Notes under the pieces: model-generated
What the model saw: only the letters and a program-made list of their open reading frames with translations
Told to the model about the DNA's origin: nothing
The model's database searches: none
Assembly: GCA_051294905.1 (NCBI GenBank)
Contig: CM119372.1
Span: 806,001 to 870,000, forward strand
Length of the DNA stretch: 64,000 nt
Origin: Botryllus schlosseri
Lineage: Eukaryota
Direction: 5' to 3'
In this document: positions 2,058-63,592 of the stretch, one piece after another
Numbering within the stretch: position 1 is the stretch's first letter
Layout: each line of letters opens with the position of its first letter
Program-made: the position numbers and the translations under genes

Positions 2058-2608
2058 CACGATTCACACCAAACGACGACACATGTTTTCTAGTTGTTTG
2101 GAAACCAAATAATTTTTAAAATGCGAATCTAGAATTAGAACTACTCAATAAATGGACAACTAACTTGATTGATAGTTTGTTAAAGCTTGGAAGTGCTGGC
2201 GACATGCATTGTAATTTTCGACGAGTGTTAATTATAATGAAGGACACTCACCGATGTTTTTTCACTGATTTCCGATACGATATTTGTGATTGATTCGTGC
2301 TGCGGCCTTCCCTGTTCGTCTGAATACGGTGGCAGCCATAGCTTTATATTGTTGTTCCTGAGATGCGTTTTTACTTTGGTAATGTCTTCTTCACTTGCCG
2401 AGGCCATCGAATCAAGGGTAGTAATAGATGGTAAGGATTAGTGTTGATTTCACACCAGCATTGAATAGATGTTCAATTGCTCTTAATTTTCTGTAAACGT
2501 GATTTGTAAAATTGACAATATTGCATGAAATTCGAGAAACACTCATTTAAAGAGACTCTTGAAGGCACAGAACTTTAATATACAATTGACTAATATATTG
2601 ATATTGAA

Positions 2609-2642
2609 ACCTGAATATCTTCGGCTGACACTCGTTAGGGGT
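2609..2642 (-). ncRNA. Degenerate hammerhead motif in a Penelope pLTR fragment (probably inactive)
   Basis: Reverse strand reads acccCTAACGAgtgtcagccGAAGatattcagg, the same motif as 48914-48947 but with CUGA->CUAA and GAAA->GAAG. Confidence 0.6.
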
Positions 2643-2905
2643 AATTGTTAGCAACTAATAGGGCTATAGAATTGGAAAAACCAGTGTACATGTACATCAG
2701 CAGTCGACAAACGGTCACTAATTTACCATAAGCAGAAATTACAGCAACATTGGCAATTTCAGTGATTTCCATGTTCTAATGCCACGAGAAACATTTCTAA
2801 AAATTCCTAAAATCATTTCACACAGAATCCTCACATTATTCAACCGATAGTGTTGAGTTAAAATACATGAATTAACAATAAAATCTGCATATTTAAGGTA
2901 TCACA

Positions 2906-10929: not shown

Positions 10930-11519
10930 TATAGAAATTAAACATGGAACGGCAACGACCGATTTTGCAGCTTCGTTCCGCTTCGCCGAGGCTGGAGTGG
11001 AGAGTGCTTTTGCGTAAGCGACTGTAGGATTTCTGGCAATCCAAAAGCTATCTTCCCGAGCACAGAAATTATTGAATATGGTCTTGATCGAAAGCCACTG
11101 CTGCACCGATTCCGAAAATATAAAGTAAAATAATGATCAGGCACTGATCCACCTAGAATCCATCCTCCAAGTCGAAATATCGGCATTGTTCGAACAATCG
11201 GAGAGTCGCAACGGGTCATTGTTATGGTCATTGTGTTGCGGTTACCCGATTGTTCTGAACAATGCCGATATTTCAGACTTGGAGGACAGATTCTAGGTGG
11301 ATCAGTGCCTGATCATTATTTAAATTTATATTTTCGGTATCAGTGCAACAGTAGCTTTCGATCAAGACCAGATTCAATAATTTCTGCGCTCGGGAAGATA
11401 GCTTTTGGATTGCCAGAAATCCTACAGTCGCCTACGCAAAACAATTCTCCTCTCCAGCCTCTGCGAAGCGGAACGAAGCTGCAAAATCGGTCGTTGGCGT
11501 TCCATGTTTAATTTCTATA
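10930..11519. mobile_element. Foldback MITE A (long inverted arms), 7-bp TSD
   Basis: Arms of about 275 bp starting TATAGAAATTAAACATGGAAC; TSD ATCGAAC at 10923-10929 and 11520-11526. This explains the mirror-image ORFs 10938-11231(-) and 11224-11511(+). Confidence 0.88.
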
Positions 11520-12030: not shown

Positions 12031-12907
12031 CAGACTTGGACAACTAGAAGATTTTCAGCTTTTCTGAATTAGATTAGAATTAGAATTAGAGCTCCACAGT
12101 TTTTTTCAAACTAGATTAGAATTAGAATTAGAGCTGCACAGTTTTTCCAAATTAGATTAGAATTAGAATTAGAGCTACACAGCTTTTTTCAAATTAGATT
12201 AGAATTAGAATTAGAGCTACTAAGCTTTTTCCGGATTAGATTAGAATTAGAATTAGAGCTATACTTAGTTCGCAAAAACTTGGAAATTGAATGAAATTGT
12301 ATATGGGAAATGAATACAGCAAAATGCAGTTCACATCAAATCACAGTGCGTGGTGCAAAAGGCCGTGAGGCGATACGCGCCACATATTTTTGTTTAATAA
12401 ACAACAACAACAGTGCATGAGAATGGTTAACTTCTGTACACCAAGCTTGGCGCGATTTTTACTATACTTTAATAAAATATTACTTCTTTTATGGTAACCG
12501 TGGGCATCGCCCATGTTAGTCAGAATGGCGATGTACTAACGTAAAGTTTTAGAAACTAGAATGTTGTTCGCAGACTACAAGCTACTCTAGCAGGCTATAT
12601 TCGTCATAATATCTACTATGACTGCACGGGATATTCTTTTTAAATCACTGCAATAGTGCAATATGCCTCGGACAAAGAGGCATTTTCAGGAAAACAATAA
12701 TTAGATTAGAACTAGAATTAGAGAATACGGCCATTTCACAAATTAGATTAGAATTAGAATTAGAGCATAAGAACATTTCACAAATTAGATTAGAATTAGA
12801 ATTAGAGCATGGAAGCATTTCACAAATTAGATTAGAATTAGATTACTGGCATTTCGCTCTAATTTAGTGAAATTAGACAACTAGAATTATCTAGTTGTCC
12901 AAGTCTG
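12031..12907. mobile_element. hAT-type MITE with internal ATTAGA/AATTAG arrays (most abundant family in the window)
   Basis: TIR CAGACTTGGACAACTAG; perfect 8-bp TSD cgctgtgc (12023-12030, 12908-12915). Decayed copies at about 470-730, 19300-19560, 20077-20620, 29470-29700, 40870-41280, 42430-44210, 45320-45676, 53580-53900, 54906-55155, 58040-58430, 60750-61300 and 62040-62410. Confidence 0.9.
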
Positions 12908-18318: not shown

Positions 18319-21300
18319 ATGTCGACGAAGGATGTCTTTACCGGGGCGAAAGACTTGCCGATGAGTGAAAAATTGAAGATTTTGGACAAGGAGATACGTC
18401 GTTTGCACAGGGCATGCAAAGACGCCGGATACAGCCCTGATAAGATCAGAGAAGTCGCGAGCCCGGTTCTCAAGACTGCGCGCAGGTTGCAATGCATTAT
18501 ATGGTTACCGGTAACCGTTAATCCATTCATAGTGAAATGTCTTGTGATAGAAGACCAGATCGATAAGGTGATAACCGCCACATTGTTCCATTTCCAACAA
18601 TTAATAATAATAATAACATGGTTGACTGATATCAATCACATTCTTTGTCTTGGAACCAGTCAAAAACGCATAGCTGTGGTATGCAGGCTGTTCGTTTGAT
18701 GTCCAGGGTGCTCCGAGTTTGATCATTTGCGGCCAGAGGTGGTAAACAGATTAGACCATACGTGATTCTGACCGGCATGCGAAAAGTTGCCTGGAATTTA
18801 TAGCATAAAACCTACTTTTGAACGTAGCCTAATGAATGGACTATAGAAGCACACATAGGCTGTTTTAAACTGAACCAGACATGCGTTTACTTTGAAGCCT
18901 GTTTATTTATGTATCGTGATCAAGTAATAGCACACGTTCGTCGTATGCGTAATCCAGATTAACAGTAAAACCAATATAGCAAAGTTTGTAGCAACAAATG
19001 AAGTCACAGATCACTGTTTCCATATAATATATTTCAAACGTTGTTTGTTGCGTTGTTACATTACGAATTACGCGGTCCTTCCAATAAGTGGTTATACAGC
19101 AGTGTTACACCTTATACATTTCCAATTCCTAGTTTGCAAAACAAGTTATTCGGCACATTATTAGCGGCCGTCGTCGCCCGTAAAATGTTTAGAAATAAAT
19201 GTGGAATCAACATTAATTCGCCCCAGAATACAGTTTAAAGCACCATATATTCTATGCTTCTCATTTGGCCCGCCGGGTGAAATAATTGCCCAGCCATAGC
19301 CACGGATTAGAGAGAAATGCATGTAATCCGATTCTAATCTAATTTGTGAAATGTCTTTATTCTCTAATTTTAATTCTAATCCAATTTCTGGATTTTCTGA
19401 AATGCTACTGGAGAGCTGTGTAGTGCGAAACGAGCCAAGCTTGCTGTACAAACATTTGTCATTCTCGTGCTTATTAACATGAACTTTGATTTGATATGAG
19501 CTTAACTTGATTTTTTCTTGTATTTCTTTCTAATTCTGAATTTAATTTATTAATTAATTCTATTTTGGAATACCTGAAAATTTTCAAAATCAAACCGCTT
19601 TCCCACCATTTCAGGGGTGAAATGAAGAAAGCCATCCGCATATCCATATACGTCGCAATTTTAGCAATCACCTGTTACGCGTGCTACAGAAATGAAACCA
19701 CAAGTTACGTGGGGAAAGTCGTGTGGAAAAAATTCATGGTTAATTACGTGAGTACATCTTCAATTGACGATAACAGATGACGGGTACCAGTGAATTCGAA
19801 AAATGGTGAATTTGGCATTAGAAATGTAATAACTAATATTATTTTGAAAGCGATGTATATAGTAATATTGTATTCATGAATTACAAAAATAAATGTTTCA
19901 GTCGTGAGTGCGAATCTGTAATATACGAGACTTGAAATCGGCACTCGATTCTAAGTATGTATCTTTTCATAACAAATATAAAACCTATAGTAATATTATA
20001 TAAGAGATTCATCAATATTGCATTCATAAATTCAAAAACCAATGTGATCGTTAAAATAATTGTGATATGTAGTGAGCAGACTTGGATTTGACGATTAGAT
20101 AATTCTAGTTGTTGTATTAGACTAGTTAGGTGAAATGCCGGTGATCTAATTCCAAACTTATTTGTGAAATGTTTCTACGCTCTCATTTTATTACTAATCT
20201 AATTTCTGTTTTCGCGAAAATTCTACCGCATAACTGTATCGTGCGAAACGAGCCAAGTTTGCTGTACAGACATTTACCATGCTCATTCTTATGAGAATGA
20301 AGCAGGGATATCTAGATATCTAGATATCCCTGGAATGAAGTCTGATTTGTTTGTTTGTGGTATTCATGGCGTTTGTCGTCTACTATGATCATTTGCACCA
20401 GGCCAATTTTCGTCATTTTTCTTCCGTAGCTGCAGACTCGTAGCACGGCTCACTTCTAGGCTTTTATAAGACACCGGCTGCCAACATGGATTATATATTT
20501 AATATGATCTAAACTTGATTTAATTTCCAAGTTTTCTCGCATTCAGTAATTTTAATTCTAATATAATTTGGAAAAATGTGTTGCTATAATTCTAATCCTG
20601 GTCTAATTCGGAAAAGTTGAATATTTTATCTCCGCACTCTGCCTGAAGTCACGCAAAGATTTATTTTTCTTGTAGATCCTTCCGTATTACGATTGGACTT
20701 GGATCTATAACAGCGATTGCCTCGTCGAAAACCCATATTATGAACCGATAGTGGAAGAACTAACTGAAGACAACTGCACAGTAAGTAGGCTGACACCTTT
20801 TTTGGCCAATCACCATCCAGTGACACTGTATATATTGATCCTTCATACACAAAGTACGTCCGAAATCTCTTCTAGTTGCTGACGATTACCAGTGACGAGT
20901 GCAGTCGAAAACATTCGGGTTCATTTCAATATTCAATTGTGCATTGAAGTTCTGTACCTCTGAGTGTCTCTTTAATCTTCATATTGACTCATCATTCAAT
21001 TACTTATCTATGCAGGTTTGTGCCGACCTGAAGACATTGGTGCCGATGTCAAACGTGGACACGGATGAAATGACGGAGTTGATTTACGACATGATACCGT
21101 CCGTTATAGAAGACGCCATGCTGAATTGGAAGGCTATCACGGATGATGTCGACTTGGACACCTTTATCAAGGCATGTATATGGCCGCAATATACAGCGTT
21201 GCAACTCGTAGAAGCAACCAGAGGTGGCTAGTAACGTCGGGTTATCACATTTTGAAATCCGAGAAAGAGGACACTTTTTACAAATAGCAAAACTTATAAC

Positions 21301-24300
21301 ATCGGACGAGAATATTGTGGGTCGTTTTTTCAAATCGACTCGCAGAAGACCCGCTCTGAAGTCATTATCAGTCATCCCTGCCGTCGCTGACGTTGAAATC
21401 CAGATTTATGGCGTTTCAGTTCTGCCTGTACAATCATCTGGCTGTCATAGCTATAAAGAAGGACTAATTGCCAATAAATAGGACATTTGGGCGTCCTCGT
21501 AGGACATTTTCGATTTCTTGAAAAAGGAGGACAAATCCTCTTAATGGAGGACGTACGGTATAACGCTAGTAATGGAGAGTAGCCTACTTCTACTTTTACT
21601 TCAAATAGATTTCGCCCACTTGCACTACTTCCCCGAGTGGTCATGTTAAGACTTCGTCTTCTACTTTATAGTTTTTAGGTACAACTAGGCAAGTAGAAAT
21701 AGTCTGACGCGATCACTATAACGAAGTACTTCGTTTTAGATTTTCGCGACTAACGAACAGACGATGATCGTGAACGGGAAGAGTCAAACGTTTTACTTCA
21801 GGAGCACGAAAAAATTGGGAAAAGGCATCAGCAACGCGACTACTTTTGCTAAATTCATTTACCAAGAGGGTATCGAAGGAAGGAAGCATAATTTCTCTGT
21901 ACAATGGTCAGTTTCATATCCACATGAAGCAAACTGGATTTTCCTAATGTGCAACTAGAAATAGAACTAGAATATCTCACTTTTGAAAATCCGCAACTAG
22001 AACTACAACTTCTCACTTTTCAAAACTCGCAACTAAAACTAGAACTAGAATTACTCACTTTTCAAAACTGGCAACAAGAAGTAGAAGTAAAAATAGTCAC
22101 TTTTCAAAACTGGCAACAAGAAGTAGAAGTAAAAATAGTCACTTTTCAAAACTTGCAACTAGAACTAACATTACTCAATTTTCAAAACTCAGTACTAGAT
22201 TTTTAAAATCCGCAACTATTTAACTAAAACACAACTAATTCGATTCAATTCCGAAGCAATTCACTCAATTTTTATCCTCATCGGACCGGTTTTCCGCATG
22301 AACAACAGAACAAGTTTGGCATAGAAGCGTTTCGACCCTTACAACCCACTTCCATAGTTACGCCTCCATTAGTAGTGATGACTGTGAACTAGCAATGGCT
22401 GCAAAACATCACACAACAGAACACAGGTATGTCGAATCACGCCAAATGACGACACATGTTTACTAATTGTCCGGCAACTAGGACCTAAGAACTAGAACAA
22501 GGCTATTAAACTGAACCTGTATCACGAAATCTTACCGCGAACACAAACTTAATTTTTCTCAGGGCAAACAACGGCCACTCGTCCTACAAGGTCATGCACG
22601 ATTTCTATTTCAAGCCTTATTTTTTGCCGAGCATGTGCGAAGCGTTGAGGGATTTAAGCTACATCGCAATGGCGAGGCAGCCGATTTTGGAGAAACTTCC
22701 TGGACTCGTGGTGAGTCAAATGAGCAGCCGATTGAATTATCGTCGATATTGGCCTGTTGACCTTACTGATAGAGATGAGCGGATTTGAAATTTCTATGTT
22801 CCGATCCAATCCTTCAAATCCTAATCCACAAATTCTGTATACTTTAATCCTAATCCCAATCCTTGTCCGATTCAAACTTGGAATTCCACCTAAAAAGCTT
22901 ACTTCTTATGCCTATAATTCTGCAAAAATAAATAAAACGCTTCATGAGCCAAAATTTCACAAATCCGGTTTTCCCAAATCGTAATTCTAATCCATGCTCA
23001 TCTCTGCTTATACTGACTGTCGCAATGATTCGCACGGATTCATCACCATCATTGGTTTATTAGCAATTTTATCAGTTCAATACACCACAAAAAATGCGAT
23101 ACAATGAAAAGACAGGAAGATGTCGAAGCGACAAGGAGTAGTCTATGGAATCGGACACCCACCTTGGCCTAGGCGATGTAAAGAGGAGGCATGCACACTG
23201 AATGAAAGTAAAGAATATAGTATAGAAAAAGAAAGCGACAAGAAATAGGGCGGCATGTCATGGGAAGCGAGATCGATAGGTCATTCGTGGTCCGGTAATC
23301 TTGAGAATGGACTGTATTTATTCATAGAGTATCAGTATCAGTTTAGTAATAATTTTCATAATTTCAAAACATCACAAGACTGCGATACAATGAAAAGATA
23401 CATTCTCGGCTGAAAGAGTGTGTATTCACACTAACAGGCCAGAAAAGGGTGGTACAAGAAGACAGAGCCCAACTGAAAATTATATAGCGGTAATAAATCC
23501 TACGTTCCTATACGTGCATGCATAATTTGAATCAAATGTTGTACTCTATTCATACCGTGGTATAAGTCTGAGGTTGGTTCTGGTTTCGTGTTTCATGGGT
23601 GTTCATTCACTCCCATTTATCAGGGGTGGTACACGGGTGGAAATACACACCCGTCCGGCCTAGGCCATGTAAAGAATAGGTATATACTATATACCAGAGA
23701 TGAGCATGGATTAGGATTAGGTTTTGAAAAAACAGGATTTGTGAAATTTTGTTGGATTTGGATTGGATTTACCTATTTTCTGGGAGACTGAAATGTCATC
23801 ATCATCATTGGTTTATTAGCAATTTTATCAGTTCAATACACCACAAAAAATGCGATACAATGAATAGACAGGAAGATGTCGAAGCGACTTGGATTTGTCA
23901 ATGGAATCGGACACCCACCTTGGCCTAGGCGTAGTAAAGAGGAGGCATGCACACTGAATGAAGTAAAGAATACAGTATAGAAAAAGAAAGCGACAAGAAA
24001 TAGGGCGGCATGTCATGGGAAGCGAGATCGATAGGTCAGTCGTGGTCCGGTAATCTTGAGGATGGACTGTATTTATTTAGTAGTAATTGCTTGTATTTCG
24101 ACTTGAATGTGGACATGCTCGTCGACTGTCGGATGGCCGGCGGGATACTGTTCCACACATCAGGTCCGGCATATTTGATGGAGCGATGATCTTTTCGGTC
24201 GATCATATGATATTTGGACGACGTGGACGCGCGTGTGTTGTACTTGTGCGCTTTTGATTCAGAGGTAAAGAAGTCATTGAAATATTCGGGGCAACGACCG

Positions 24301-27300
24301 CAGTGAAACTGATACATAAACTTGGCGATTTCTAGTTTCCGCATATCTTCTATGTTTAGGACGCCGAATCTCTTCAGCAGCGACTTATTGGATGGGCAGC
24401 CAGGCCCCTTTGGGGCCCTAGCTATGATTCGGAGCACTTTATGCTGTAGTTTCTGCAGTGGCTTGAGTGCAGTTTTACTGGCAGCCCCCCAACAGAGGAT
24501 GCCATAATGTAACTTCGATTGGATTAAGGATTTAAAGAGTATCAGGAGAACCCATGCTGGCATGAAGCGCCCAAGGCTGTAGAACAGGCCGCACTTCGGT
24601 GATAATTTAGTTTCTAGGGACTGAATATGACTCTTCCAGGACATGTTCGAGTCCAGTAAAACTCCGAGATATTTGGCATTATCTGTGTTGGAAACGGGCT
24701 GACCAGCGATATTAACGGTTAGGTTATTTTTTGAATTGACTGTCAGCAATTGCGATTTCGAGGCGTTTATGCAAAGGTTGTTCTGGGCCGTCCACTCATG
24801 GACTTTGGGCATTTGGTCACCAGTCAGGGCATCCAGCTCTGCCGTCGAAGATGCGGAAGAGAGGAGGTGAGTATCATCAGCGAACAGTGTGGTGTTCAAT
24901 GAGGAGGTTTCAAAAATGTCGTTGACATATAAGGTGAAAAGGACCGGTCCAAGTACTGAGCCCTGGGGCACACCACAGGTCACCGGGTGAGGAGAGGACA
25001 AGGTGTCTGAGATCGCAACCATTTATTGGCGTCCAGTGAGGTAACTTTTCATGAGCTCAAGTTGTGGGCCCCGAAGTCCGTAACGCGCCAATTTCGAGAT
25101 GAGAATTTTATGATCTACGCAGTCAAACGCTTTTTTTAGGTCGAGAAAAATGCTACATCCCACATTTCGCTTCTCTGAGATATCATAGTACTGTTCGGCC
25201 ACTGTTAGGAGGGCATGAGCGGTTTGGTGTTTGTTTCGGAAGCCAAATTGTTGAGGGGAAATGACAAACATTTTGGCGAGGAATGAGGACAGGCGGGAGA
25301 GGAGCAACTTTTCGAATACAATCCCGATGCATGGGAGAACGGATATCGGACGGTAGTTGGTGACATTAGTTCTATCCCCAGCTTTGTGTACAGGGACTAC
25401 TCTGGCTTTTTTTAGATAGCTTGGGTAGACTCCATTTTCTATCATGAAGTTGAAAAAATGGGCCATATATTGACCGATATGCAGGCTTATCATTTTTAAA
25501 AACCATGATGGGATTTGGTCATAGCCGTCGGCCTTGTGCGATTTCAGTTTGTGGATGGCTACTTCTACTTCGTATTTGGTCGTAGGTTCAAGCACAATTG
25601 ACTGGGATATCGATCGATGTCGTGTGGCGAATGGCGACATACTTTATTCAGATCAGTTATTAATGTAATTATGGTTACTAAGTTATCTTGAATCAAGTGA
25701 ATCGTTGGTTGTGAAAGAAAATTTTCGAATCCCTCCATTGCATAAATAAGTATTTTTTCTGAATTTCAAGTTGGAATCGGATTAGGATTGGACATGGACT
25801 TGAATATGAAAAAGTTATGGATCAGGATTTGGATTTGAAGGTTCGGATTAGGATTGGATTAGGACATAGAAATTTCAAATCCGCTCATCTCTGGTATGTA
25901 GCCTACTGTACACTGGGCTGAAAGAAATAGGAAATAACATTGAACTACTACGAATGATGGTGCTAAAAGCAGTCGGGCTACTTGCACAGAAGCAATGCCG
26001 TAAATTTCTACTCAATTTAAGGTAGCCTACAGGTAGAGATTTCGAAGTCCTGGAAAAATTATTTCCAGTAGACGTAAACAAGAATAGATCTAAAAAAGTA
26101 TTTCGATGCAAGATACATCTTCACCCCACGCGAAACGACAAATGAACGTACAATGATTTTGGAAATATATCGATATATCAATCAAAGTAGCTTATGTCCA
26201 TTATTCAAATTTTCAGAAACAGTTTTCTGATTTATAGAAAATCAAGTCTTTTTGCAAAATTTTAAATTTTTTGGCCATGTTTATGTTTGTCACATTGTAT
26301 CAAAGTTAATCATGGCCAAGATATTTCCGAAATAAAATGTAAATTTTACGTGAAGTTAATTTTATTAAAATCAGTAAAATGGACATAAAGCTACTTCGAT
26401 CCCACAACCACGATATGATTAGTTACAGTGACATAAGGAATATTTGACTATAACCATACTTATACTAGTCCGCCCAAAAGATGACCGGACCACGACCTGA
26501 CCTATCGATCTCGCCCTCCGTGACATGTCACCCCATTTTTGTCGCTAGCTTTTTTTATACTATCTTCTTTTACTCTTCATTCAGTGTGCTGTGCAATGTG
26601 CATTCTTCGCTTTACCTCGCCTAGGCCAAGGTGGGTGTCGGATTTCAAAGACTACTCCAAGTCGTTTCGACACCTTCCTTTCTTTTCATGGTATCGCAAT
26701 TTTTGTGGTGTATTAAACTGATAAAAATTGCTTAACAAACCGAACTGAACCGAACCAGTTCTACTTAACAATTTACATGGCAAAACAAGGCCTAGAATAC
26801 TTACTCGGAAATCGCTCCTTCTACTATAGTACCACTGATAACATAGATCCGCACATATCCAAAACTTGTTTACTTTACGAAATCAAAACCAAGCAGGCCT
26901 ACTGTTTCAGCAGCCAGCGGGTCGAAAACGTGATTTCTTATTTTGCAGCTCAAGCCTCGTGCTAACGACCTTGGGATTTGGATGGCTCAAGTGGTCGGAG
27001 ATAGCGAGGTCATTTTGAGTCCTGTACCTATTTGTTCAAAGATATGCTCGAAACTGAGATTTGTTTTAAAGAGAGGCCAGATATGTGAGTAGATCTGTAA
27101 CAAAATCTTAAACACCGAATTATGTTGTAGTATACTAGAGGGCTAGGCATTGCAAAATTTGAGTACCTGATTGATTCGATTCTGAATCAACTATCTCACA
27201 GTATGAAACATGTTAAAATTCTCGTTGATGAATTACCTCTTAGCGGCCCATGCCTAGCAGTGACCCTGATTTAAAAATAAATCCCCAAGAATTAAGTGCT

Positions 27301-31300: not shown

Positions 31301-34300
31301 AGCAACGAAGAATCCTTGTGTGTATCCTTAGAATGAAATATACCGCTAAAACTTCTAGCGAATATTGCTCTGGATAATCTTGGTGTTTTAAATCCTGAAC
31401 AACTTGATGACTCCACGAATATAGAAGAACATAATCTGACGTCTGTCGTAGACAGAATTATCCTTCCTCGCAGAACACCAGACAATTTATGACATAATTT
31501 GTAGGCGGTTGTTAACATGATAGTTATGCTATGACAAAACAAAATAAGTTTGCGAGTTACGAAAGATTGGAAGACTCTTTAGCGTTATATCTAATACAGA
31601 TACTTCAGATCACTAGTGAATCACAAGTAAAGCTGGGCGTAATTGAGTTTCCGAGTGATTCGATTCTGAATCGAATATTGGGCTTTGGTAGGGTTGCCAT
31701 ATTTTGGAATCGGGAAAGTGGACACTTTGTCAAAATTTTCAAACTTAGAATACCGGTGGAAAATCCTGAAAAATTTCTCAATCATTCCACTTCGTAGTCG
31801 GTTGACTAAAAAAAAGAATAAGGTCGTCGCGTTTGTACCTCAAATTTCGTATTTATGCCCATAGGCCTACTCACTATAATCTGTCCACTATATTAGCTCT
31901 AAAACGTGTAAAGGCGGGCGAATCGCCAAAAAGGAGAACGCATGCTAACCCTAGCTTTGGGCGACACTCATTTTGATGTCATAACAGTATGGCTGATGTG
32001 GACAGTTCAAATAAGTGCAATTTTTGTGACCATGAAGAAAATAATGCTAGATCACGTCTCTACAGATATGTCATATCCAGTAATGTGCATAACTTTGTAC
32101 TACATGTCCTGGAAGAGGTGATACAACCAATTGAGGTTTCCTCATCGCAAAAAAGCGCATAAACTATAGGCCTAGGCTAATTCTTGTTGCTAACAAACAT
32201 TTTAGTGGAAAGGGGAGTGTAATAACAGTACTCGAAAAAATCATCTCTCGCTGCCCGACTCGAATCACTTAATTTACTTCTTGACTCGGATTAGAGTACT
32301 CAAATCATTGTGCCCAGTTCTAACGACAAGTAATTATTACCCAAATGTACTGTAATTCTTGCTATTATCAACAGAATTGCTAATACAAACGAGAAAGTGA
32401 GCATTACAGAAGCGCATGGAAACCGTGGAAATGTAAATGTAATACACAATACACTGTCAGAAAAATATAACAGGCACGAAAAATGCCAAAACCGATGAAT
32501 TAACTGGAACTGAATATATGTTATGAGGTACACTTGGAGGTATAAAACTTCATTATACAATTGAATAATATATAAATATTGAAATACATCCGAATATTCT
32601 CGGCTGACACTCGTTAGGGGTAATCGTCCTCTATTAGTTGCCGAGGATTAACCCTGACGAATGTCAGCCGAAAATATCTCAACACATTTCAATATGAATA
32701 TATTATTCAATTGCATTTTATGACAAGTGCAATTGAATAGACTTCACGCAACAGATAGCGCAGAGTTCAAAGGTTTCGAAGCTTGTTGCGATGGAGGCTT
32801 CTCGAGCGCTTGACGTACGTGTATTTCTCTGTAGCTGTAATCTCTACGTCCCGGCTCAGTTCGAATGTCGTGTTGTACCGGATTAACTTGCTTTATGGAA
32901 TTTCCGGTTGATTTTGATTTCATGTCATCTGGAGGGCAGTTACGGGTTGCTAATTCTCCCAAAGTCGGCTTTATGTTGAAACGTCTTGGATTTTCTAGTC
33001 TTTCAAGACCTCTCCTCTTTAAATGCTTTGCTATAATCGTGTGGGCCTTTTCTTGGGTTGTGATGATGTTAGGTTCGGTCATAAATTCAGTTATTTTCAA
33101 ATTATTTTTGACGGAGTGTGATGCAGTGGCGCGTGCATGAATTGGTAGTCGTAGCTGGTAATTTTCATCAGTGAAATCGATTTCGGGCTCTGTGCCTAAA
33201 GTTTGTATAATCCGATTGGTCAGTAGTGAGTAAATCGTTTGAATCAAGATCTCTGCAGCTCCGACTTTGCAGTGTATAGTGCCGTCTGTCATTTCCTTCG
33301 GAATACCGAGACTCTTCCTCACGAAAAATCGCTCCAACTGCGACCAATTTCCGAGTTTCGTGGGCAAAGATATTCCGTTATCGAAAGAGTGCATTTGTAT
33401 GTCTTGAGGAAAGTACCACGAAAAAATCTCCGCCACCAAGAACCCGTTCGCCAAATCGCGTCTGGCATTTTTCACAGGGTAAGACAGGTCTAAACTCTGA
33501 AGCCATTTTAATACTTCCCGGGGAAGACTTTGCCGTGTGACTCCATTATCCGTCCTAGGCATCCTAACGTTATCTACTGTTAATACCTTAACCTCGGACC
33601 TCGCATGCTACACAAAGGGGGCAGATTTCACTCAATCTCGTAACCAGGGCAACGGCATCTGAACCTTGACGATATAATCGCGGAGATCACAATATTACTT
33701 TATACGAATATTACCATAAAAAAGGACTACTCTGTAAACTGTGTGCCCGCAATCCATCCACAATTCTATCGACAATTTTTCATCGACATATCGGTTTTCA
33801 CATCAGGAATGCCAAAAGAGACCATTTGCAGACAGCTACGATGGTAACACCGAAACCGACGATGACAAAAAATCCAGCTTTGAATCGTTCGTTCGTTAAC
33901 GACCCAACAAGAGGTATTGGTTCAGTATCGACTGATTGAATTTCCCATTAAAATATTTTTCAAATCTGGTGTCTTACCGTTCCATGGTAAACCAGGCAAA
34001 TATATAAAGTTGATCCAGTGTTGTTTTCCTATGATTCCAGCCATAGGCGCCAACTTTTATTTTTTTACGAGGCGGCGAAGTCTTGTGACGTCATAATTGT
34101 TCGGTGTCGATGACGTCATCGTCGCACTAAAACGCACTTTCCTACATGCCGCTGGTGTACGTGCAAAGTCACTGATTGATTGATTGATCAGCGTTAACCA
34201 TTTCCGTTTTATGTTACGTTTTAATATCGACTCTGCACTCATTATTATCAAACCATGCAGTCAAGTTATTAAGTGGAATCTTAAAACGGTACGATCATTC

Positions 34301-37300: not shown

Positions 37301-40300
37301 ATCAATTCAGCCTTTAAGAAGAAGATGATCCTATCTAAAAAGTATAATTTTCTAGAGTCGCCCAATTGGCTGCTAATTGCAGAGTCCAAGAATCCCGGAT
37401 CTTAGGATTTACCACAATGACTACATTGGCTACACATTCTCTTGATGTCCCCGAGCCCGACTCGATTCTGCCAGATTCAGTGAATTTCCTGAACGCTCAT
37501 TTTCCGGATGGATATTTATTCATATTATATTGCCAATTGAAGCCACTCGTCGTTATAGATAGGAAAGCCTGTGAGCCAAAAAGGCCATCAACCATTTTTA
37601 ATTGTGATGATAAGTAGTATACTCTGATATGTTGTGTGCAGGGATTTCTAGAACTTCCACGCGCTTCGTGTCCCATCCCGAGGTTCTAGAAATCCCTGAT
37701 TGTGTGTACTCTACACTCTACAGTACATGTATGCCGGTAAACTTGGCGCGTACGAATCGACTATTGAGCTTTGATACTGCAGTAGGAGTCGGTCATTTTT
37801 TTTGATCGATTTCGCCCCCATGAAGCATCGTTCACAATTATATGAACAGCTTCTTTGAGGTACAGAACTTCAATATACAATTGAATAGTATATTCATATT
37901 GCAATGAACCCGAATATTTTCGGCTGACACTCGTCAGGGGTAATCGTCAGCAACTAGTAGAGAATTCGAAAGAACAGCGTATATCAACAATCGTAACACA
38001 AAATATGACGTCACCAGCACGAAATGTCGAATACGAGAGCGTTCAATGTACTATTTTTAGATGATACACGAACTCTTTTTGTTGACACAGCCTTGGCTGG
38101 TGTATTTTGATAAAAGTCGACTCCAAGGCACACAAATGAAAGTGTGAGCGACCCTTTCCCAGTATGCGAAATCTGTCGTCTCGATAATTTTTCGCACAGG
38201 CGGGATTATCCAACAAGTGTTTGCCAATTGCAGAATTTATGGCCTTTGATTGTTCCGCATCAATCTTGAGCGGGTATATTCATGCAGTGAGTGAGCACTG
38301 AATGAGGTACAGGGGTTCATGAGCTCGTCACAGCAACTCCAAGGGTTCATTCATCATCATCATCATTGGTTTATTAGCAATTTTATCAGTTCAATACACC
38401 ACAAAAATGCGATACAATGAAAAGACAGGAAGATGTCGAAGCGACAAGGAGTAGTCTATGGAATCTGACACCCACCTTGGCCTAGGCCAGGGGTGACCAA
38501 CCTTTTTAGCCAAAGGGCCACATTTGATTGACGAACTATTGTACGGGCCACTAGCAGCAAGAGGCGCGAAAATTCGTCGAAGTTCATAGATCAATAATAT
38601 TGTCACTTGACTATATTGCGGGCCTGCTGTATATCACTGGGCTCAGTTTGCAAGGAATGGACTATTCGGCGCCTGGACATATCGATATCGAAAGCTTCGA
38701 CCAAAACGAGTCAATCATTTTGTGCCTAGGTTTTACAGTCGACGGTCTTTCTGCGAGCGCAAACGTAAGGTCGCATATGTTGAACGACACTTTGTTTCGT
38801 ATTCGCGAATATAGTTGGACTCAATCTGATACATTAGGCGTTCTTTCATTTTCGCAAAAGGGTAACAATATTGAAAGCAAGAAATCGACTGACAACATGT
38901 TGCGCGAAGCGTGTAGAAACGTTTTCCTTTTGAGAAATCTATCGCAAATTTTTCTGCTTTATTGTAGTGTACGAAGATCTACCAAAATGTGACTGGATAA
39001 TGGATCTGCCAATGCGTCGGAACTGATATTTTAGTCATCACATCTCAAGTGTTGCGACCAGACTAATCAAATTTTTGGTTGGCTTTGCAAGTTCACAATG
39101 TGTGCAATCCATTTTTGATAATATTACTAATTTCGGAAATTACCTCGCGGGCCACTAAAAACCTTCTCGCGGGCCACATGTGGCCCGCGGGCCATGGGTT
39201 GGCCGGCCCTGGCCTAGGCGATGTAAAGAGGAGGCATGCACAGAATGCACACTGAATGATAGTAAAGAAGATAGTATAGAAGAAGAATGCGACAAGAAAT
39301 AGGGCGGCATGTCATGGGAAGCGAGATCGATAGGTCAGTCGTGGTCCGGTAATCTTGAGGATGGACTGTATTTATTTAGTAGTAATTGCTTGTATTTCTA
39401 AATAAATACAGTCCATCCAGCAACTCCAAGGGTTCAAACCAAATAATATTGAGAAGCACTGCTCTATCCCTCTATACAACGATTGCGGAGGTGTGTGTGA
39501 AGCTATCAACCCGAGACGAACCAACCTTTCGAACTCATCATCAAATTCTTCCACTACGTCTGAAACCTCGGCTCTTTTGTGAGAGTATCCTCCAGCGATC
39601 CAAATTTTCTGTTTGTGAACACATACAGCCGTTCCCGCTCGTACGCTTGACAATGCTCCTGCATACTCCCACACGCAATCAGTGACAGAGTATCGTTCGA
39701 TGTCTCTCAGTATTCTTTGCTTATGATCCTGGCCACCGATGGCGTAGATGTATCCGTTCAAGTAGACTGCCTGAAAATGACCTCGGAAGAAGATATTGGA
39801 CCAATCATTGGCCCACAACTATCTTCAAAGTGCCATGTTTGTGTAGAGGTGGTCAGAGTAGCCATCGGTGGTAGGCTACTCAAGTAGAAGTTGGGGCACA
39901 TGTATTGAATTCTAAGGAATAAAATACGTATTCTAGGACTAGTCTTGCCTGAAAAGTGAAAACTTTGAAGTAGAGTAAGCCGGCAAATATACTTGGAGTA
40001 GGCCTACTTGGAGGAGTAAACGTTATTCGTTAATTACCACCCGCGGTTGATATTCAAGTGAATGACGTAAATTCTAATCAGTTACAAGTATAAGTAGCGA
40101 TTTGCAATTACGCGCCAAAACTACGTCAAGTGGAAGTAGAAAATGAAAGGCCTAAAAGTACTCCAGTAGTTTCAAAATTTAGTTGGTCGAAGGTTTAAAA
40201 ACAGAACCATTTGAGTAATTAGTGCAAGTAGGCAAAATCCAATTGAGTACTCCGAAAAAGTAGAAGTATTTGGTTACTGGACACCTTTGTATTTGTGCCT

Positions 40301-46300: not shown

Positions 46301-49300
46301 CCACAATTTTCAATTCCCAAAACTTCGCTTCTGCTGGTTTGAATTGATCCAGATTTGTGACGCATTAATAGGAAAGAAAAAGCTAACAATTTCACTGCGT
46401 CCGGGCAGTGAAATTTGAAAAAAAAAAAAATCTTTTTTAATCAATTCGCTTATACGGGTTTGAATTGATCCAGATTTGATGTGCAGCGATTCTAGGAAAC
46501 CTATCAATTGCATAGAGAACGAGTTGAAATTTGTAAAAATTTGAATTTGTACACTCGGTACCTCGTCATCGGAGTCATCCGATTCGTCCGGAACCGGTCT
46601 TCGTTTAGCAGCTCCGGGAGGTTTCGTATTCTTTGGTCGACTTTTCTTCACGCTGTCGCTGCGATGGAGATATAGGGATCATGCTAGATACGTGATCGCG
46701 GAAACTTGCCCCGCTGTCGACGTAGGTGATAAGTAGGGATGGGCTGGTTGTGATCAATCTACAGCATTGTCAGTAAGAGCAATGAAATCGGTATGGTCGA
46801 AAGATGCGAAATAACCTTTAATGCGCAACTGGCATTTCTTTATGACTTTAGACTACTTTTAAGTTACTTTCACGCAATAGCCTTGTGTTTTTTAGGCAAA
46901 ACTTGGTCTGAAAACCTGAAATTTGTACTTTTTATAGAAATAGGTAGGCCTACTTTTACTTCTACTTGTATTTGTACTTAAGTTACGGTACTTCGAACGA
47001 TCTGACGACGTCATTCACGCTCTTACCGTTTGCGGTCTCTCTCCAGTTCTTTATCCAACACGTTTCGCATAATGGCGTCGACGAGACCCTGCATTTCCAA
47101 TTTGGCCCCGGCGCGAAATAAGCGTTTTAATTTGGTGGTCGTTACGTCGACTTCGGCCGTGTACATGAAATTTAATACCTGAATATCAGAGATGAGGAAA
47201 AAGGTTTATGATCATATTGAAGCTGAATTTGGATTAGGGCTTGGACAGGAAATTTCTAATCATTGTTTAATTTCCATGCGACTTTAGAGCTAAATACCGG
47301 TATAGAGTTAGGGTTAGGGCTGCTACCAGACAGAAGACAGTGTCCCAGTGAGACCTATACTTTCCATGATCGGGTCTGCTCACCATCAGCTGGCAAAATG
47401 GCTTATTGACATTTTGGAACCGGTTCGGGAATTGTACGGCACGGAATGTGTTCGCGATTCGTTCACGTTCGCTGGTGAAATACGAAACCTGGATTTGCCG
47501 AATCCAGACGTGTTTCTGAGCTCATTTGATATCTCTAGTCTTTTTACGAACGTTCCGCTGCATGAGACTATTGATATTTGTGCCAACGCGCTGTACGGTG
47601 GTAAGTTACCGCCACCATCAATCCCGCGTAACGTCTTTGTTGAAATTTTACAAGCGGCAACTTGCTGCGTGGAATTTAGCTTCAACGAGGTCATGTTTCG
47701 CCAAATAGTCGGCTTAGCCATGGGTAGTCCCCTGGGACCTATTTTGGCCAACATTTTCGTAGGGTATTACGAGGGCGAGCTTCTGTCCCAGCGTGAGTCC
47801 GCCAAACCACTATTGTACCGCCGATACGTAGATGATACATTTGTCATTTTCAGGAATGAATCGGAGTGTGACCAATTTCTCATTCGCTTAAACTCGCTTC
47901 ACCCGGCCTTGCAATTCACAATAGAAAAAGAACGCAATAACTCATTATCATTTCTGGACGTATTAGTTGAAAAGCGCAATACCAACAAATTTGAAACGTC
48001 TGTTTTCAGGAAACCGACATTCACAGGCCAATACCTTCGCTGGAATTCATTTAGTCCTTGGCGCAGAAAAATTAACCTCATAGGCACACTCGTGCATTGA
48101 GCGTTGATGATATGTTCGGGTAACAAACTGAGTTTAGAACTTGACTACATCCGAAAAATCTTACTTGATAACGGTTACCCTGAACACGTCATCAGCCGCG
48201 GCATGGAGAGGAAATTAACGCAATTCAACGCAGAAAAACGAGCAGAGCCCACCGCACGAACAATAAAAGATGTTTATATCCATCTACCTTGGATTGGCCC
48301 CATTTCCACCCGCTTTGAAAAACAATTGATTTCTGCTGTCGGTAAATGTTACGATACAGTCAAAACCAATGTGATTTTTACAACAACACAACTGCTCCCT
48401 TCAACACGCAAAGACGTGCTTCCTGCACTTCAACAAAGTAATGTAGTGTACGAATATAGGTGCCACTGTGATTGTGGCTACGTGGGAAGAACGTCAAGAC
48501 GTCTGCAGGACTGCATAAACCAACATGTCCCCAGATTTATCAGAACACGTGCGTCACGCGATGTGAAAAGCTCACCCTCATCCACTTAAGATTGATGCTG
48601 ATCGATCAAAGGCAATTAATTCTGCCATCGGCAAACATCTGTTGGATAATCCGATTTGTGCGAATAATTATCGAGACGACCGATTTCGAATCGTAGGTCG
48701 AGGCCGTTCACAATTCCATTTGTGTGCCTTGGAATCAACTTTTATCAAAATACACCAACCAAAACTCTGTCAACAAAAAAAGTTCGTGTATCACCTAAAA
48801 ATAGTACATTGAACGCTCTCTCATTCGAAATTTCATGCTGGTGACGTCATATTTTGTGATACGATTGTTGATATACAATGTTCTTTCCAATTCTCTACTA
48901 GTTGCTGACGATTACCCCTGACGAGTGTCAGCCGAAAATATTCGGGTTCATTTCAATATGAATATACTATTTAACTACCACACTGTAAAAAATCTGGTAG
49001 ATTTACTGGGAAATCTCTGTCAATTTTACAACGAATTACCGGTCGCAGCCAATAACTGTGCGTAGCTTGTAATTTTACATTTTGATATGTAATATTACCT
49101 TAGTTTAGCTGTAAGTCAAGTTACCAGAATTTCTTCGCAAAATTACTGACAGTTACTCGTAACTGCAGTTTACCAGGCAATTGGGAAGATTGATTAGCTT
49201 CATAATCGTTGCAGCCAATATATACGTGGAAATGAATCATCATCATCATCATTGGTTTATTAGCAATTTTATCAGTTCAATACACCACAAAAATGCGATA

Positions 49301-53233: not shown

Positions 53234-56200
53234 TTAAAGCTGATTAAATTCGATCAAGTTTTCCGAAAAAATGCGAATCAGAAATCTCCCTCCGTTTTTG
53301 TTGTAGAACCGGGAAGGCACAATGACGTAGTTTCCGGGCGATAGCGAAGCTGTGAGGGTAACTTCCCTTCTGTTTATGTATTTTCCAGATGAGAAAACGA
53401 GGGCACTTCGGTCGCGAAAGAATTCAGGTCCGAGTTTACTAGGAGGTTTTCCGTCGATCTGAAAACACGGAACAACATGAAACGAAATCCACACCAATAT
53501 CGGATTTTTGAGCCGGCCGATCACCTTTACCGATATCCCCGATATATTCAACCAATATGCAAAAGATACGGAATCTAGCTTTTTTCGAATTCGGGGTTTA
53601 ATTCAATTACCAAGTTTTTGCCAATTTAGGAATTTTAATCTAATTTGTGAAATGTTAGTATGCTAATATCACTTCTGGTTTTCCTGATCATGCCACAGGA
53701 GAACCGTACAGTGAGAAACGAGTCAAGCTCGGTGTACAGACATTTGTCGTTCTCGTGATTAAGGGATTGAACTCTGATTTGATATGAACTGAGCTTGATT
53801 TTTGTTGTATGTTTCTTTCTAATTCGGTAATTATAAATTAGTAATTCTAACTGTACTCTTATTTGAAAAAAAAACACTGCGTAGCTGTCATTCTACTTCT
53901 AATTGGGAAAAGCTGAAATATTCTCGCTGTCCAACTTTGTAGTCAAAAGCACCTGATACACGTCGATGGCCATGTAGAGATTTTCTCTTCCTTCGCTGCG
54001 GAAGTGGCGTTTGTCCTGTTGCATGAGGCCGAAGGACAAGTCGCATTTCCCCTCCTGCGACCAATCGTCTCGTTCGCGGTCGTAGTCGTCTGCCGACAGA
54101 GGGGAAACGCAGTGCTTGCACTTTTTACGAGTACTGATATAGGTTTTGACTTATTGCAGGCCACTAGGTAATCCAGTGGTTGTGGCTTTAGACTACTGCA
54201 GGCACACCTATACATTTTATTTTAGCAGAATCAATCACACTTTTCCATTTTTGGCTTTGAAAATGAAAAATGTGCTTTCAACACTTCTACCTATACTTTA
54301 TAACTTTAATGGAGTAAAAAATGTACGGAGTCACTTCTATTTCTACCTGCAGTGACTCTTGAATGTACATGACTTCAATATACAATTGAATGATATATTC
54401 GTATTGAAATGAACCCCTCACACTGACACTGACACTCGTCAGGGCTAATCGTCGGCAACCAAGTAGAAAATTAAAAAGAACAATGTACATCCATATTTAC
54501 ACTAATGACAACTTTAAAATATTGGTAATAACAATAACAACTTCTGACTACTTTGATCACATCTGTGTTCCCTCCCGTGCAGCCAGACAACCTCACCTGG
54601 TTGCAGCAAAGTCAGAAGGTATTGCGGGTTGAACGCAAAATCTCGCGCTTCTCTCCGGTGCGATCCCACGTTTCGTTGCCAAAAACCTTTCGTTTGCGTC
54701 ACACGCCATCTGTCTTTCCAGGTCCTGCCGGGAGCCGAAACAGCTCCCACGGTGCAGAACTTAATGCTTCCAAAGTATGACTTGAAATCTTCGAACGACA
54801 TCCAAAAAACTCCCTCATTCTTTTTACGGTATCCGATTTTACGTTTCTCTGCCAGACTTACTTCGGCCCAAAGTTCGGAGCTAAATTCGAATGTATTCTA
54901 TTAACCAGACTTGACAACAATTCTAGTTGTGACTAATTGGAGAAAAAGGCCGACAATCTAATTTGTGAAATGTTTTTATGCTCTCATTCAGTTTCTAATC
55001 TTCTTTTTGTTGTATTTCTGTCCAATTCAGTTTCCAAGTTTTTGCGGATTGCATAATTCTAATCCCAATGTGATTTGAGAAAAGAACTATGTATCTATAA
55101 TTCTATTTGTAATCTAATTCAGAAAAAGCTGACAATTTTGTAGTTGTCCAATTCCGGTATGTCCAGGTCGCTGCAATACTCTGCCGTGTAAATGAAAATA
55201 TCATTATCATGTATAACTGATATCACATACCGCATGCTGATCGGTACAAATGATGACGTCTCGAAAGCAGACTGGAAGCTTAAAATTCTCTCATAACATT
55301 ACTAATCTTATACAGATTCAGAAATGTTATAATATCTTCTCACCTGTCGGACCAATCTCCTGTCCATTCCTCGTCTCCGTACGGGTTCCGTATTTTCACC
55401 AACCGGATTATCGAGCCCCGGAAATGAATCTAAGAATGAAATGACTTGATGACGCATCGACCTTCACTTTTTAAAACTAGTTTAATGCTCACTCTGAACG
55501 CTCCCGTGACTGAGTAGGCGTGTAGCGATATCAAACCACGCTTATCTTTTGTTCCGCGGTACGTACACGTCATCAAGGTGTTGTTCTTGTAAGCTCTGCA
55601 AAATCAAACCGGACATACTTTGCATCAGGGATATCTAGCAGCGGGCTGCGTGAAACCACATTTGCTGGTAAGATGAACCTATAGTCCGGGTGGTCTGACT
55701 TTAATGACATTTGAGGTACAGAGCTTAATAGCATATTCATTAAGCTTAATCTCAATTTACTATAAAGAAATAGAACTACGAAAATATTAAATTGAGCTTA
55801 AGCCATCTTTTCGCCTCGATTATTCGAATTTTCTTGCCGTATCGTACCAACTGGAATTTTGTATAATATTGTTGATTTGTACGGCTAGCGAATAAAAACT
55901 TATCGCTATTTCGGATGTAGCTACATATTCGTTTGTAACCAAGGATTGAGAATTAGCCTCGTCGCGACTGCTTCACTGCAATTTGAATTACGAATCATGA
56001 TCGGCACGATCTGCGATTTTGGTACAAAGTTGGCAAACTTTGGCAACCAGATTCCTAGCTTTCAGAAGGATTCCACATGAATGCACGTCGCAAGACCAAG
56101 GGTTAGTTTTTGCTTTGTCATGGGCGCATTGCTGACGTACAAGGAAATCGCGTTAGTTGGCCGCTTCCCGTCGCGATTATTATTCATACGATGAATTTGC

Positions 56201-61475: not shown

Positions 61476-63592
61476 CTAATGCAACTCTTCCAAGTTGATC
61501 TTCTTCTCTGTGTAGACGCGGAGAAGGTAGCTCGCCACTTTGTCCGGGTAGAATGTGGACGGTACGATCACGTAATGCCCTGGTGACATCAGTGAGGTGG
61601 CGCTTACTTCACGGTTATTGGTGAAAGATCCAGAATTGAGGTAGTCTCGGTTGTAACGGAAATGGTTCACAACCAGGCGTCTACGAGGCTCACTTTTAAC
61701 CTGAGATTAAAAGAAATAAATACGATTGTTGATATATTAAGTAATTTCCAATTCTCTACTAGTTGCTGAAGATTACCCTTGACGAGTGTCAGCCGAAAAT
61801 ATTCGGGCTCATTTCAATATCAGCATATCATCCAATTGTATAGGATTTAGTCCGAATGCCTCCACAATAACGATAGAAAGAGAGAGCATGGACATACTTC
61901 TACTTTTCCAATGTCGTTACGTAAAAAGCAATTTTGCCTCAAGTAGAAGTGGGGGTATTCTAAAACACAAGTACTTGAGTAAGTAGTGAGAGTACGCAAA
62001 ATCTACTCGAGTGCCCCTAAAAGTACAAGTACTTCGTTATTATAATTCTGGTTGTCTAATTTGACTAATTGGTGCGAAATGTCGGTAATCTGATCTAATC
62101 TGTGAAATGTTTCTATGCTCTGATTCAAAGCTAATCCAATTTCTGGTTTTCCTGAATGCTACAGGAGAACCGTATCGTGCAAAACGAGCCAATCTCGTTG
62201 TACAGACATTTGCCATTCTCGTGTTTCTGAGAATCAACGTTGATTGAATATGAAGTGAACTCGATTTTTGTCTTATTTCTTTATGATTCGGAATTAAATT
62301 CAATTTCCAAGTTTTTGTGAGTTCAGTGATTCTCATTCTAATGTCATTTGAAAAAAACTGTATAGCTATCATTCTAATCTAATTAGTAAAAGCCTAAAAT
62401 ATTCTAGTTTTCCCACTGTAGAAATTAGACTAGCGCGCCCGCGAGACGTAACGCAGTACTTTTACTTTACAAAGTAGTTAAAGTGGATTTTACCTGCTCA
62501 CACTACTACAAGTGGTTATGATTATAGACTACTTCCTATTCTACTTGACAGTTCTCAGTTTTTAAAGCTAAACTAGGCCCATAGTACTTACTCTTTTACT
62601 TAATTGTAAACTTCTACTTGAGTGTGATATGACGCGTTACTTCTACTTCTACTTGAGTGTGATATGACGCGTAACTTCTACTTCTACTTGAGTACCCACG
62701 GTGACTACTATCACCGCCTCCGGACACGCCTCGAAGACGTAAAATAATTGCAGTACCTTGTACACTGAGAATCCGATGTGATGATTTTCCAGTCCTTGAG
62801 CCTTTCCCACTCTTCTGTATTCCTGCATCAGTCCGATGGCGACTGAACATTTGCCTTCGCTCTCAGGCTCGTCCACGGCCGCGTCGAAATCGTCTGAAAC
62901 CGATCGGAAGGGGTATTTGAACAGCTTTAGGGGCATTGCTATGCTTAAACATGAAATAAATCATAGAGTCTACCTCTGGACACTTGCAAGCGGTGGTCGT
63001 CAGTATAAGTATATCGAGGTACTTCTGCTTTTTCAGAGTAGGGTTCGGGTGCCATAAACGTTGTGTGCTATAAACGTTCGGACGTCAATGAAACGCAAAT
63101 TCGATTGTTGACAAACTGTCGGAAATTTACGGATAACATGTGCTTAACCACAGGCACAAAAGTAAGTGCTTTTATAATGGCTAATATCAAACCGGCGGAC
63201 GTGGAAGCTACATCATTCCATAGCTTACTACATTATTCGCCATCGCACCGTACCCAGGAGAGGTGTGGGTTTAATTTTAATGGTTATATCCTATTAACAC
63301 TTTGTTGATGCACTGTTTATTATGTGCATCAATATTCTATATTAGATGTGTGCGTGTGTGTGTGATATGGGGGGGGGGGGGGGGAGGAAGTTTAAAGGCT
63401 TGCAGATTTGCGTAAGTGTTCCCCGGGTTCGTAAACATTAAAACCCACTGCTCTATACAGAAACCGTAGTCACCTGGTTCCCGTAGCTCCAAGTAATACT
63501 GCGGGTTCGTAGCAAACTTCTCGACCTCGTTTCTACATCCCCCAGCAGTCACACCCCTTACCCACGACCCTCTCGCTTTAGACAGGAACCAC
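61476..63592 (-). CDS. Calpain B, 3' exons only (63474-63592, 62757-62893, 61476-61700); gene continues beyond the window
   Basis: GSWVRGVTAGGCRN...FATNPQY, IGLMQEYRR...IGFSVYK, NNREVS...PGHYVIVPSTFYP...YLLRVYTE form the CBSW domain, followed by a stop. Confidence 0.9.
61775..61808 (+). ncRNA. Hammerhead motif in a Penelope pLTR fragment (C3U variant)
   Basis: accc TTGACGA gtgtcagcc GAAA atattc gggc with pLTR flanks from 61746 to 61840. Confidence 0.65.
62611..62692. repeat. Short tandem duplication (about 33-bp unit) inside an AGTAG-family MITE remnant
   Basis: cttctacttgagtgtgatatgacgcgt occurs twice, plus a partial third copy. Confidence 0.7.

Follow-up and report, generated by a model that had tools for sequence, protein, structure and literature searches.

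Minimal hammerhead ribozymes have been described in Penelope-like elements (PLEs), where most of them occur as single elements that probably derive from truncated copies (Cervera and De la Pena 2014, PMC4209133). According to the accessible part of that paper, self-cleavage of these hammerheads is weak and proceeds as a dimer, the descriptor requires 3-7 bp in helix II, and none of the 56 representatives has fewer than 3 bp there (PMC4209133). Reverse transcription of Penelope elements starts in the first codons of the ORF (PMC11167929, PMC3846280), and the pLTRs include the first 12 codons, or 22 if a tail is present (PMC3846280). This optional tail of 30-40 bp (PMC8557442) mirrors the presence of two sites of internal priming within the start of the ORF (PMC11167929), and inverted truncated copies and solo pLTRs are given as marks of Penelope insertion (PMC3846280). 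The hammerhead of an anole Penelope element needs protein and was dispensable for insertion in vitro (PMC11167929). Outside Penelope elements, hammerheads containing a pseudoknot are known from metagenomic sequences (Perreault 2011, PMC3088659; Zhan 2024, PMC11300833).

In the 64-kb stretch of DNA analysed here, which is called the window, a first-pass annotation had placed a minimal hammerhead with a palindromic stem III in a Penelope-like pLTR. This was borne out, and the pairing of the two is already in print (PMC4209133). As far as the accessible part of that source describes them, the Penelope minimal hammerheads and the window motif have in common the core, a helix I of 4-5 bp, the G10.1-C11.1 pair and the palindromic helix III, as well as the position in the pLTR and the occurrence mostly as single dispersed copies and as inverted pairs. 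Unlike the published examples (PMC4209133), the window motif has a helix II of only 1 bp, no base between A9 and G10.1, and a predicted pseudoknot of loop II. Dispersed single hammerheads from truncated Penelope elements have been known since 2014, and the stem II variant, as read from the sequence, appears to be a modest novelty over the published minimal-hammerhead consensus.

The Penelope-like element

The motif follows a 5'-truncated and broken Penelope-like ORF at 47333..48813 on the plus strand, in which Pfam and tblastn searches detected a reverse transcriptase (RT; Pfam RVT_1, E=2.5e-9), a thumb and, at the C-terminus, a GIY-YIG endonuclease. In the tblastn comparison with the full-length relative P0122, residues 355-765 and 779-841 were covered at 63-65% identity. 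The ORF is interrupted by an in-frame stop at 48098-48100 and by a frameshift near 48576. Both lesions are particular to the window copy: most reads and contigs over 48098 differed from it, and extra letters at 48576 were present in reads of all four runs examined. The 80-aa endonuclease end used as the query of a protein search gave no candidate. Two TTAGGG units were present at 47305-47318, just 5' of the truncation point of the ORF; they could be a neighbouring repeat or a telomeric-type addition at the truncated end.

The 3' pLTR at 48814..48974 (plus strand), delimited from the sequence and by blastn, comprises the 3' UTR, the hammerhead and the opening codons of the ORF that follows. Loose ends of reads and contigs behind 48971 continue into the tail of the family. 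The Penelope ORF opens inside the pLTR, at 48958..48974 on the plus strand, with its start codon 14 nt past the predicted cut, a position missed by the first-pass annotation. This start codon and the codons behind it were recognised from the translated tail and from sister locus L002. The longer tail of copy 37908(-) encodes 18 residues that are 61% identical to the N-terminus of the full-length P0125 (pairwise E=1e-5), and L002 contains in tandem an ORF end, pLTR, hammerhead, start codon, next ORF and second pLTR. An unrelated repeat with a moderate depth of its own (48975-49240) begins exactly at the end of the pLTR copy.

The endonuclease has two Cys between its GIY and its YIG motif, and the CX2-5CxxC linker was absent from the window ORF and from 31 of 31 full-length relatives. 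With RT followed by this GIY-YIG domain, a pLTR that includes the ORF start, the optional tail and an inverted truncated copy, the element fits the Penelope/Poseidon type by the marks listed in the accessible part of PMC8557442, the clade name being given by description and not by comparison with named references. The PLEs of this type (PMC8557442, PMC3846280, PMC11167929, in the parts accessible) likewise have RT-GIY-YIG with two Cys and no such linker, pLTRs with the first codons and an optional tail of 30-40 bp, head-to-head truncated copies and solo pLTRs; stem II of the hammerhead was the only difference from them.

Structure of the hammerhead motif

The motif occupies 48914..48947 on the plus strand and was assigned to type I from its sequence and from compensatory changes across families. 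Stem I has 4 bp (48914-48917 with 48944-48947), and positions C3-A9 of the core correspond to 48918-48924. Stem II is reduced to 1 bp, G10.1 at 48925 with C11.1 at 48933, which closes a loop of 7 nt (48926-48932). G12-A15.1 are found at 48934-48937, the palindrome of stem III at 48937-48942 and C17 at 48943, after which the cut is predicted. All elements written down in the first-pass annotation could be located, namely stem I with 4 bp, the core, stem II with 1 bp and the palindrome of stem III, and the last-frame stop of the Penelope ORF at 48811-48813 accounts for the distance of about 100 nt that had been given between ORF and motif.

In agreement with the Penelope minimal hammerheads, CUGANGA, GAAA and UH stand in type I order and are accompanied by a short helix I, the G10.1-C11.1 pair and a palindromic helix III. 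The helix II of at least 3 bp and the extra base after A9 were absent. Hammerhead models, which the first-pass annotation had suggested as a check, did not recognise the motif: the Rfam search of the window gave no hammerhead match, even at E<=10. The bare pattern CTGANGA-N5-20-GAAA had 4 matches in the window versus 3.27 expected, which is not above chance; what carries the hammerhead call is stem I together with the palindrome, the position and the conservation between families. An upstream CUGACGA at 48905-48911 was considered as a second catalytic core and was rejected, because no valid cleavage triplet there is followed by pairs of a stem I.

The predicted fold of the window motif, obtained with a program that cannot score pseudoknots, was inactive. 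Loop II paired with the core (P about 0.85), and the pairing probability of stem I was below 0.03. That the lone motif is predicted to misfold agrees with the low activity of minimal hammerheads and with the need of the anole hammerhead for protein.

Copies of the motif in the window

Seven further copies were found by blastn (E 4e-84 to 2e-18) on the strands given in the first-pass annotation. An unfiltered covariance model, whose training came partly from 3 of the window's 8 copies, found the same eight and no other match below E=1, so that the earlier count of eight copies in 64 kb, with their places, stands. Copy 37908(-) is not one of the solo pLTR pieces of 100-150 bp of that description, as it extends 393 nt into the endonuclease end, and 32590(-) and 32651(+) are one head-to-head pair.

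The copy at 37835..38273 on the minus strand, 88% identical over 393 nt to 48582-48974, contains the endonuclease end, the pLTR, an intact core and a long tail. Blastn and comparison of the cores identified short pLTR copies at 61720..61842 (plus), with the change C3U and the short 3' end, at 20842..20960 (plus) and 2539..2691 (minus), both with a broken core and a long tail, and at 54357..54491 (minus), with a badly decayed core and a long tail. The head-to-head pair at 32533..32719, resolved by blastn and block tests, is composed of truncated pLTR copies with both cores broken, 32533-32628 on the minus strand with the long tail and 32629-32719 on the plus strand with the short end. A short reverse-complement piece of the tail at 32710-32750, just past this pair, forms a small hairpin with the end of the plus copy.

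The whole core was retained in two of the eight copies, 48915(+) and 37908(-). Copy 61775 has the change C3U, and the other five have 1-6 changes each in the core or stem II. Conservation of the core above the flanks, the test named in the first-pass annotation, was not found among the copies: 13 of 96 core bases versus 61 of 435 flanking bases were off the column majority. The window copies thus decay neutrally. This lack of conservation was not taken as refuting a ribozyme, because it is expected of dead copies.

The ends of the copies were taken from blastn and block tests, with local alignments overrunning into AT-rich flanks. The 5' ends were at about -11, -25, -47, -48, -50, -59, -336 and -1585 nt from C3. 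The 3' ends all lie in the ORF start, within its first 6-20 codons, and form two classes about 30 nt apart, with three short ends and five longer ones. Target-site duplications were not established for the copies. Judged by the blastn ends, the predicted cut was spanned by all eight copies, and none of them starts, stops or is circularly permuted at this position. Tandem arrays of copies were absent, none of the 24 tandem-repeat rows in the window overlapping a copy. The first-pass proposal that self-cleavage defines short pLTR RNAs which move independently was therefore not sustained.

We consider it probable that the eight repeats are 3' ends of a single protein-coding Penelope-like family, produced by early-stopping reverse transcription, in which the motif, predicted to be pseudoknotted, was left uncut, and that this motif would cut before the start codon. 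Their likely origin is ordinary Penelope insertion, which leaves truncated copies or solo pLTRs, and not a retrozyme cycle defined by cleavage. Most likely the element is transcribed as a tandem, and the Penelope protein primes reverse transcription within the opening codons of the ORF downstream; a re-ligated full-length circle would give the same copies. Copying would then run back through the uncut hammerhead motif, usually stop early and leave the tails. For cleavage after 48943 the pseudoknot would substitute for stem II, and the palindrome would join two motifs by pairing. Such cleavage would probably occur as a dimer and with the help of protein, just before the start codon; its role would most likely be the trimming or circularising of the full-length element RNA and not the making of short RNAs. 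The head-to-head pair with its one-sided tail, together with joints to the opposite strand at 48828-48938 in reads and contigs, matches the descriptions of Penelope elements in the accessible parts of PMC8557442 and PMC3846280.

The predicted loop II pseudoknot and related families

A strand at 48904..48910 (plus), overlooked by the first-pass annotation, is complementary to the whole of loop II and was predicted to form the pseudoknot, with 6 Watson-Crick pairs and one G-U. It lies 7 nt from C3. Compared with random 16-mers of the window, the chance of this complementarity was 0.004-0.008, a post hoc value. The corresponding chance was 0.004-0.02 for L047, which is not independent of the window family, and a weak 0.03-0.12 for L054 alone.

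For comparison, 102 loci with related RTs and seven more were used. The closest family is formed by L001, L002, L003, L016, L042, L046 and L047, with RTs 59-66% identical where measured. The L047-type family has a 1-bp stem II, a 7-nt loop and the same spacing as the window motif, the outer pair being changed from G-C to U-A. All seven pseudoknot pairs are kept in L109, although its stem I is wholly different and yet still paired. L054 has an unrelated 6-nt loop II and a matching 5-bp strand, i.e. a wholesale replacement. Seven possible pairs with the identical spacing of 7 nt are present in the window, L047-type and L109 families, and loop II and 5' strands of different types pair worse (3-4 bp).

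Nine aligned rows (eight distinct) had 95% of cells paired, versus at most 43% for slid controls; the alignment omitted L054, L003, L046, L021 and five decayed window copies, and related rows inflate the shuffle test. Changes on both sides were found across the aligned families for three of the four stem I pairs, one of three in stem III and one of seven in the pseudoknot. Four of the seven pseudoknot pairs are invariant, one pair is compensatory among the three alignable families, and a middle pair is broken in L002, L003 and L042.

Stem II is reduced to G10.1-C11.1 in four families. All four retain the core positions, this pair, a non-G at 17 and the palindromic stem III, and their first start codon follows 3-21 nt past the predicted cut. 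A tree of 29 RT rows placed the 7 whose stem II has 1 bp on one side of a branch with 100/100 support, opposite 22 long-stemmed ones; it covered loci with a readable motif and an adjoining RT, and the search profile came from the close clade. The motif is under selection in active elements, since a comparison of the window family with the L047 family aligns nothing but the 42 nt of the motif and the ORF start. A sister family has U at core position 3 in nine of nine copies, mostly opposite G8 (for example L047 961-1013 on the minus strand), and the same change occurs in window copy 61775.

Stem II of the motif has likely been replaced by a pseudoknot, as far as the sequences indicate. Hammerheads that contain pseudoknots were reportedly also the subject of Weinberg 2015, as cited by others. 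In the accessible parts of PMC3088659 and PMC11300833, stem II of the pseudoknot hammerheads likewise consists of G10.1-C11.1, and a loop II helix of about 6 bp replaces helix II, as is predicted for the window motif. Those ribozymes are metagenomic or designed and have a stable helix III, whereas the window motif has a weak palindrome and belongs to an animal retroelement. The 1-bp stem II example of 2011 is of type II (PMC3088659), while the window motif is of type I. The strand only 7 nt from C3 is also unlike the arrangement in the accessible part of PMC11300833, and the window motif has no conserved counterpart of the helix IV, with 5 bp, or of the A-rich linker to helix I that are present in the crystal form of Zhan 2024 (PMC11300833). 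Its linker has 3 nt, and a candidate 4-bp helix IV hairpin is unstable (+1.5 kcal/mol), with a register that is not kept in other families. Candidates for a helix IV or for an outer extension of stem I occurred in single families only and differed between families, and they were rejected.

A more far-reaching reading is that a whole lineage of Penelope elements in animals exchanged stem II for a pseudoknot, the compact and pistol-like fold of metagenomic hammerheads, and has a working ribozyme which is switched by loop II, is missed by the descriptors and cuts 3-21 nt before the start codon. We put this forward tentatively and incline to doubt it as a whole. The switching on in the window family would then consist of the movement of loop II from the core to the upstream strand. 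If the variant folds and cuts, it would be a pseudoknot-type hammerhead in an animal retroelement, published descriptors with a stem II of at least 3 bp would undercount Penelope ribozymes, and a 55-nt test case would be available for what Penelope ribozymes do beside the start codon. It may also explain some of the 'core only' motifs of other Penelope clades mentioned in the accessible part of PMC8557442. Literature searches found no account, for Penelope elements, of a hammerhead that has a pseudoknot or a stem II of 1 bp; Lunse 2017 could contain one.

A covariance model run on 100 loci gave no new family and missed L054. In a pattern search of five contaminated genome assemblies no further pseudoknot family was recognised, and viral contigs gave three weak, uninformative matches. 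Penelope-like RTs, some with pLTR hammerheads, were found in assemblies labelled bacterial (L081-L099, L103-L109) and are most likely eukaryotic contamination. Three matches resembling the hammerhead core, about 330 nt apart, were present in G004:C4 502889-503571 on the minus strand and possibly represent a tandem array.

Reads, contigs and alternative explanations

Reads and contigs were collected from four of 24 listed runs with a likeness cut of 85%. At 47328, 48480, 48736, 48800 and 48864 the contig depth in X1 was 12,414, 299,802, 562,071, 1,430,108 and 2,768,332, and the depth in X5 was 37, 318, 1,334, 5,052 and 20,683; contig depth is no measure of copy number, and a cut of 85% works in favour of the conserved motif. 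The depth climbs along the whole ORF toward the 3' end and peaks on the hammerhead motif. It rose 2- to 4-fold per 64-nt bin in the last two bins versus about 1.2-fold in the ORF, and the steep step over the last 130 nt was seen in X1, X5 and X24. Subfamilies sharing only the pLTR could also give this final step; loose ends lie before 48823.

In the bulk RNA run both directions were equal (771 and 816), and 98% of the placed reads ran into unrelated sequence, as for passively transcribed repeats. The two raw RNA runs together had reads from both directions, of which 66-98% ran on into unrelated sequence. Read starts or ends piled up nowhere in these two runs, and such libraries rarely keep ribozyme ends. 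Among 12 of 75 rows, X1 had two joints back within the pLTR, from 48966 to 48862 and from 48942 to 48894, and short head-to-tail pLTR forms may therefore exist.

The clustering of the 5' ends and the step in depth exceed what even truncation predicts, which counts against simple truncation. The 5' ends of all four isolated short copies cluster in a stretch of about 25 nt (47-70 nt before the core), upstream of which the copies share nothing. Together with the steep step in X1, X5 and X24, this would suit a non-autonomous class, in which solo or partial-tandem pLTR transcripts are copied in trans. Their ends would be determined not by cleavage but by the internal priming sites and by a promoter or a stop point located about 50-70 nt ahead of the core. 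According to the accessible part of PMC3846280, mobilisation in trans in a rotifer required no more than the pLTRs, and solo pLTRs are present there. However, no diagnostic 5' sequence and no shared changes were found among the four short copies, the depth falls continuously into the ORF, and both the limits on contig depth and likeness cut given above and the number of copies (n=4) weaken the argument. We regard such a class as unlikely.

The second alternative concerns the motif itself, which might no longer cut and might persist beside the start codon as a folded signal at which the Penelope protein binds or primes. An inactive lowest-energy predicted fold would be understandable in this case, as would the U3 opposite G8 of the sister family (all 9 copies seen carry the U) and a pseudoknot sequence that hardly changes across three families, in contrast to the variable stem I; the dispensability of cleavage for insertion of the anole element in vitro (PMC11167929) points in the same direction. 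Against this, the core, G10.1-C11.1, the non-G at 17 and the palindrome are kept with compensatory changes in four families, as catalysis would require, and a mere signal seems to us rather improbable.

Hammerhead repeats that are short, non-coding and related to pLTRs, with dispersed monomers among them, are also known as non-LTR retrozymes (PMC7229834, bioRxiv 10.64898/2026.07.22.740005), and frog retrozymes derive from pLTRs (bioRxiv 10.64898/2026.07.22.740005, in its accessible part). Tandem pLTR transcripts would in this case cleave themselves at two hammerheads, and the unit-length RNA, linear or circular, would be retrotransposed. The two X1 joints would suit such a course, and a re-ligated circle would also yield copies that span the cut. 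Retrozymes as described in the accessible part of PMC7229834 have canonical hammerheads in tandem units. Unlike these, the window copies lack tandem units and a canonical hammerhead, are colinear with the coding element and are uneven in length; a hammerhead in tandem units of 150-450 bp was not found within the window, and the type I hammerhead is not canonical, having a 1-bp stem II and no Rfam hammerhead match. With no copy of eight starting, ending or permuted at the cut, none of 24 tandem-repeat rows overlapping a copy and no pile-up of read ends in the two raw RNA runs (of a library kind that seldom preserves ribozyme ends), a retrozyme origin is very improbable. Early-stopping reverse transcription of Penelope elements remains the preferred explanation of the eight repeats.

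Surroundings in the window

The DNA of the window is of animal type and contains host genes as well as numerous repeats. Copy 2539-2691 is located shortly 3' of a minus-strand host ORF for dephospho-CoA kinase (2906-3430), and the pair 32533-32719 shortly 3' of a minus-strand host ORF for a CH-domain sperm protein (32744-33607); both may lie in host 3' UTRs and be co-transcribed. A long inverted repeat at 10930-11519, with 244-nt arms that are 93% complementary and an inner palindrome, is probably a MITE. Fragments of a second, non-Penelope RT (Pfam RVT_1), which is LINE-like, were found at 24036-25643 on the minus strand. An abundant repeat family with a 42-nt unit was present in tandem and dispersed copies, at 12056-12261, at 12699-12842 and scattered elsewhere.
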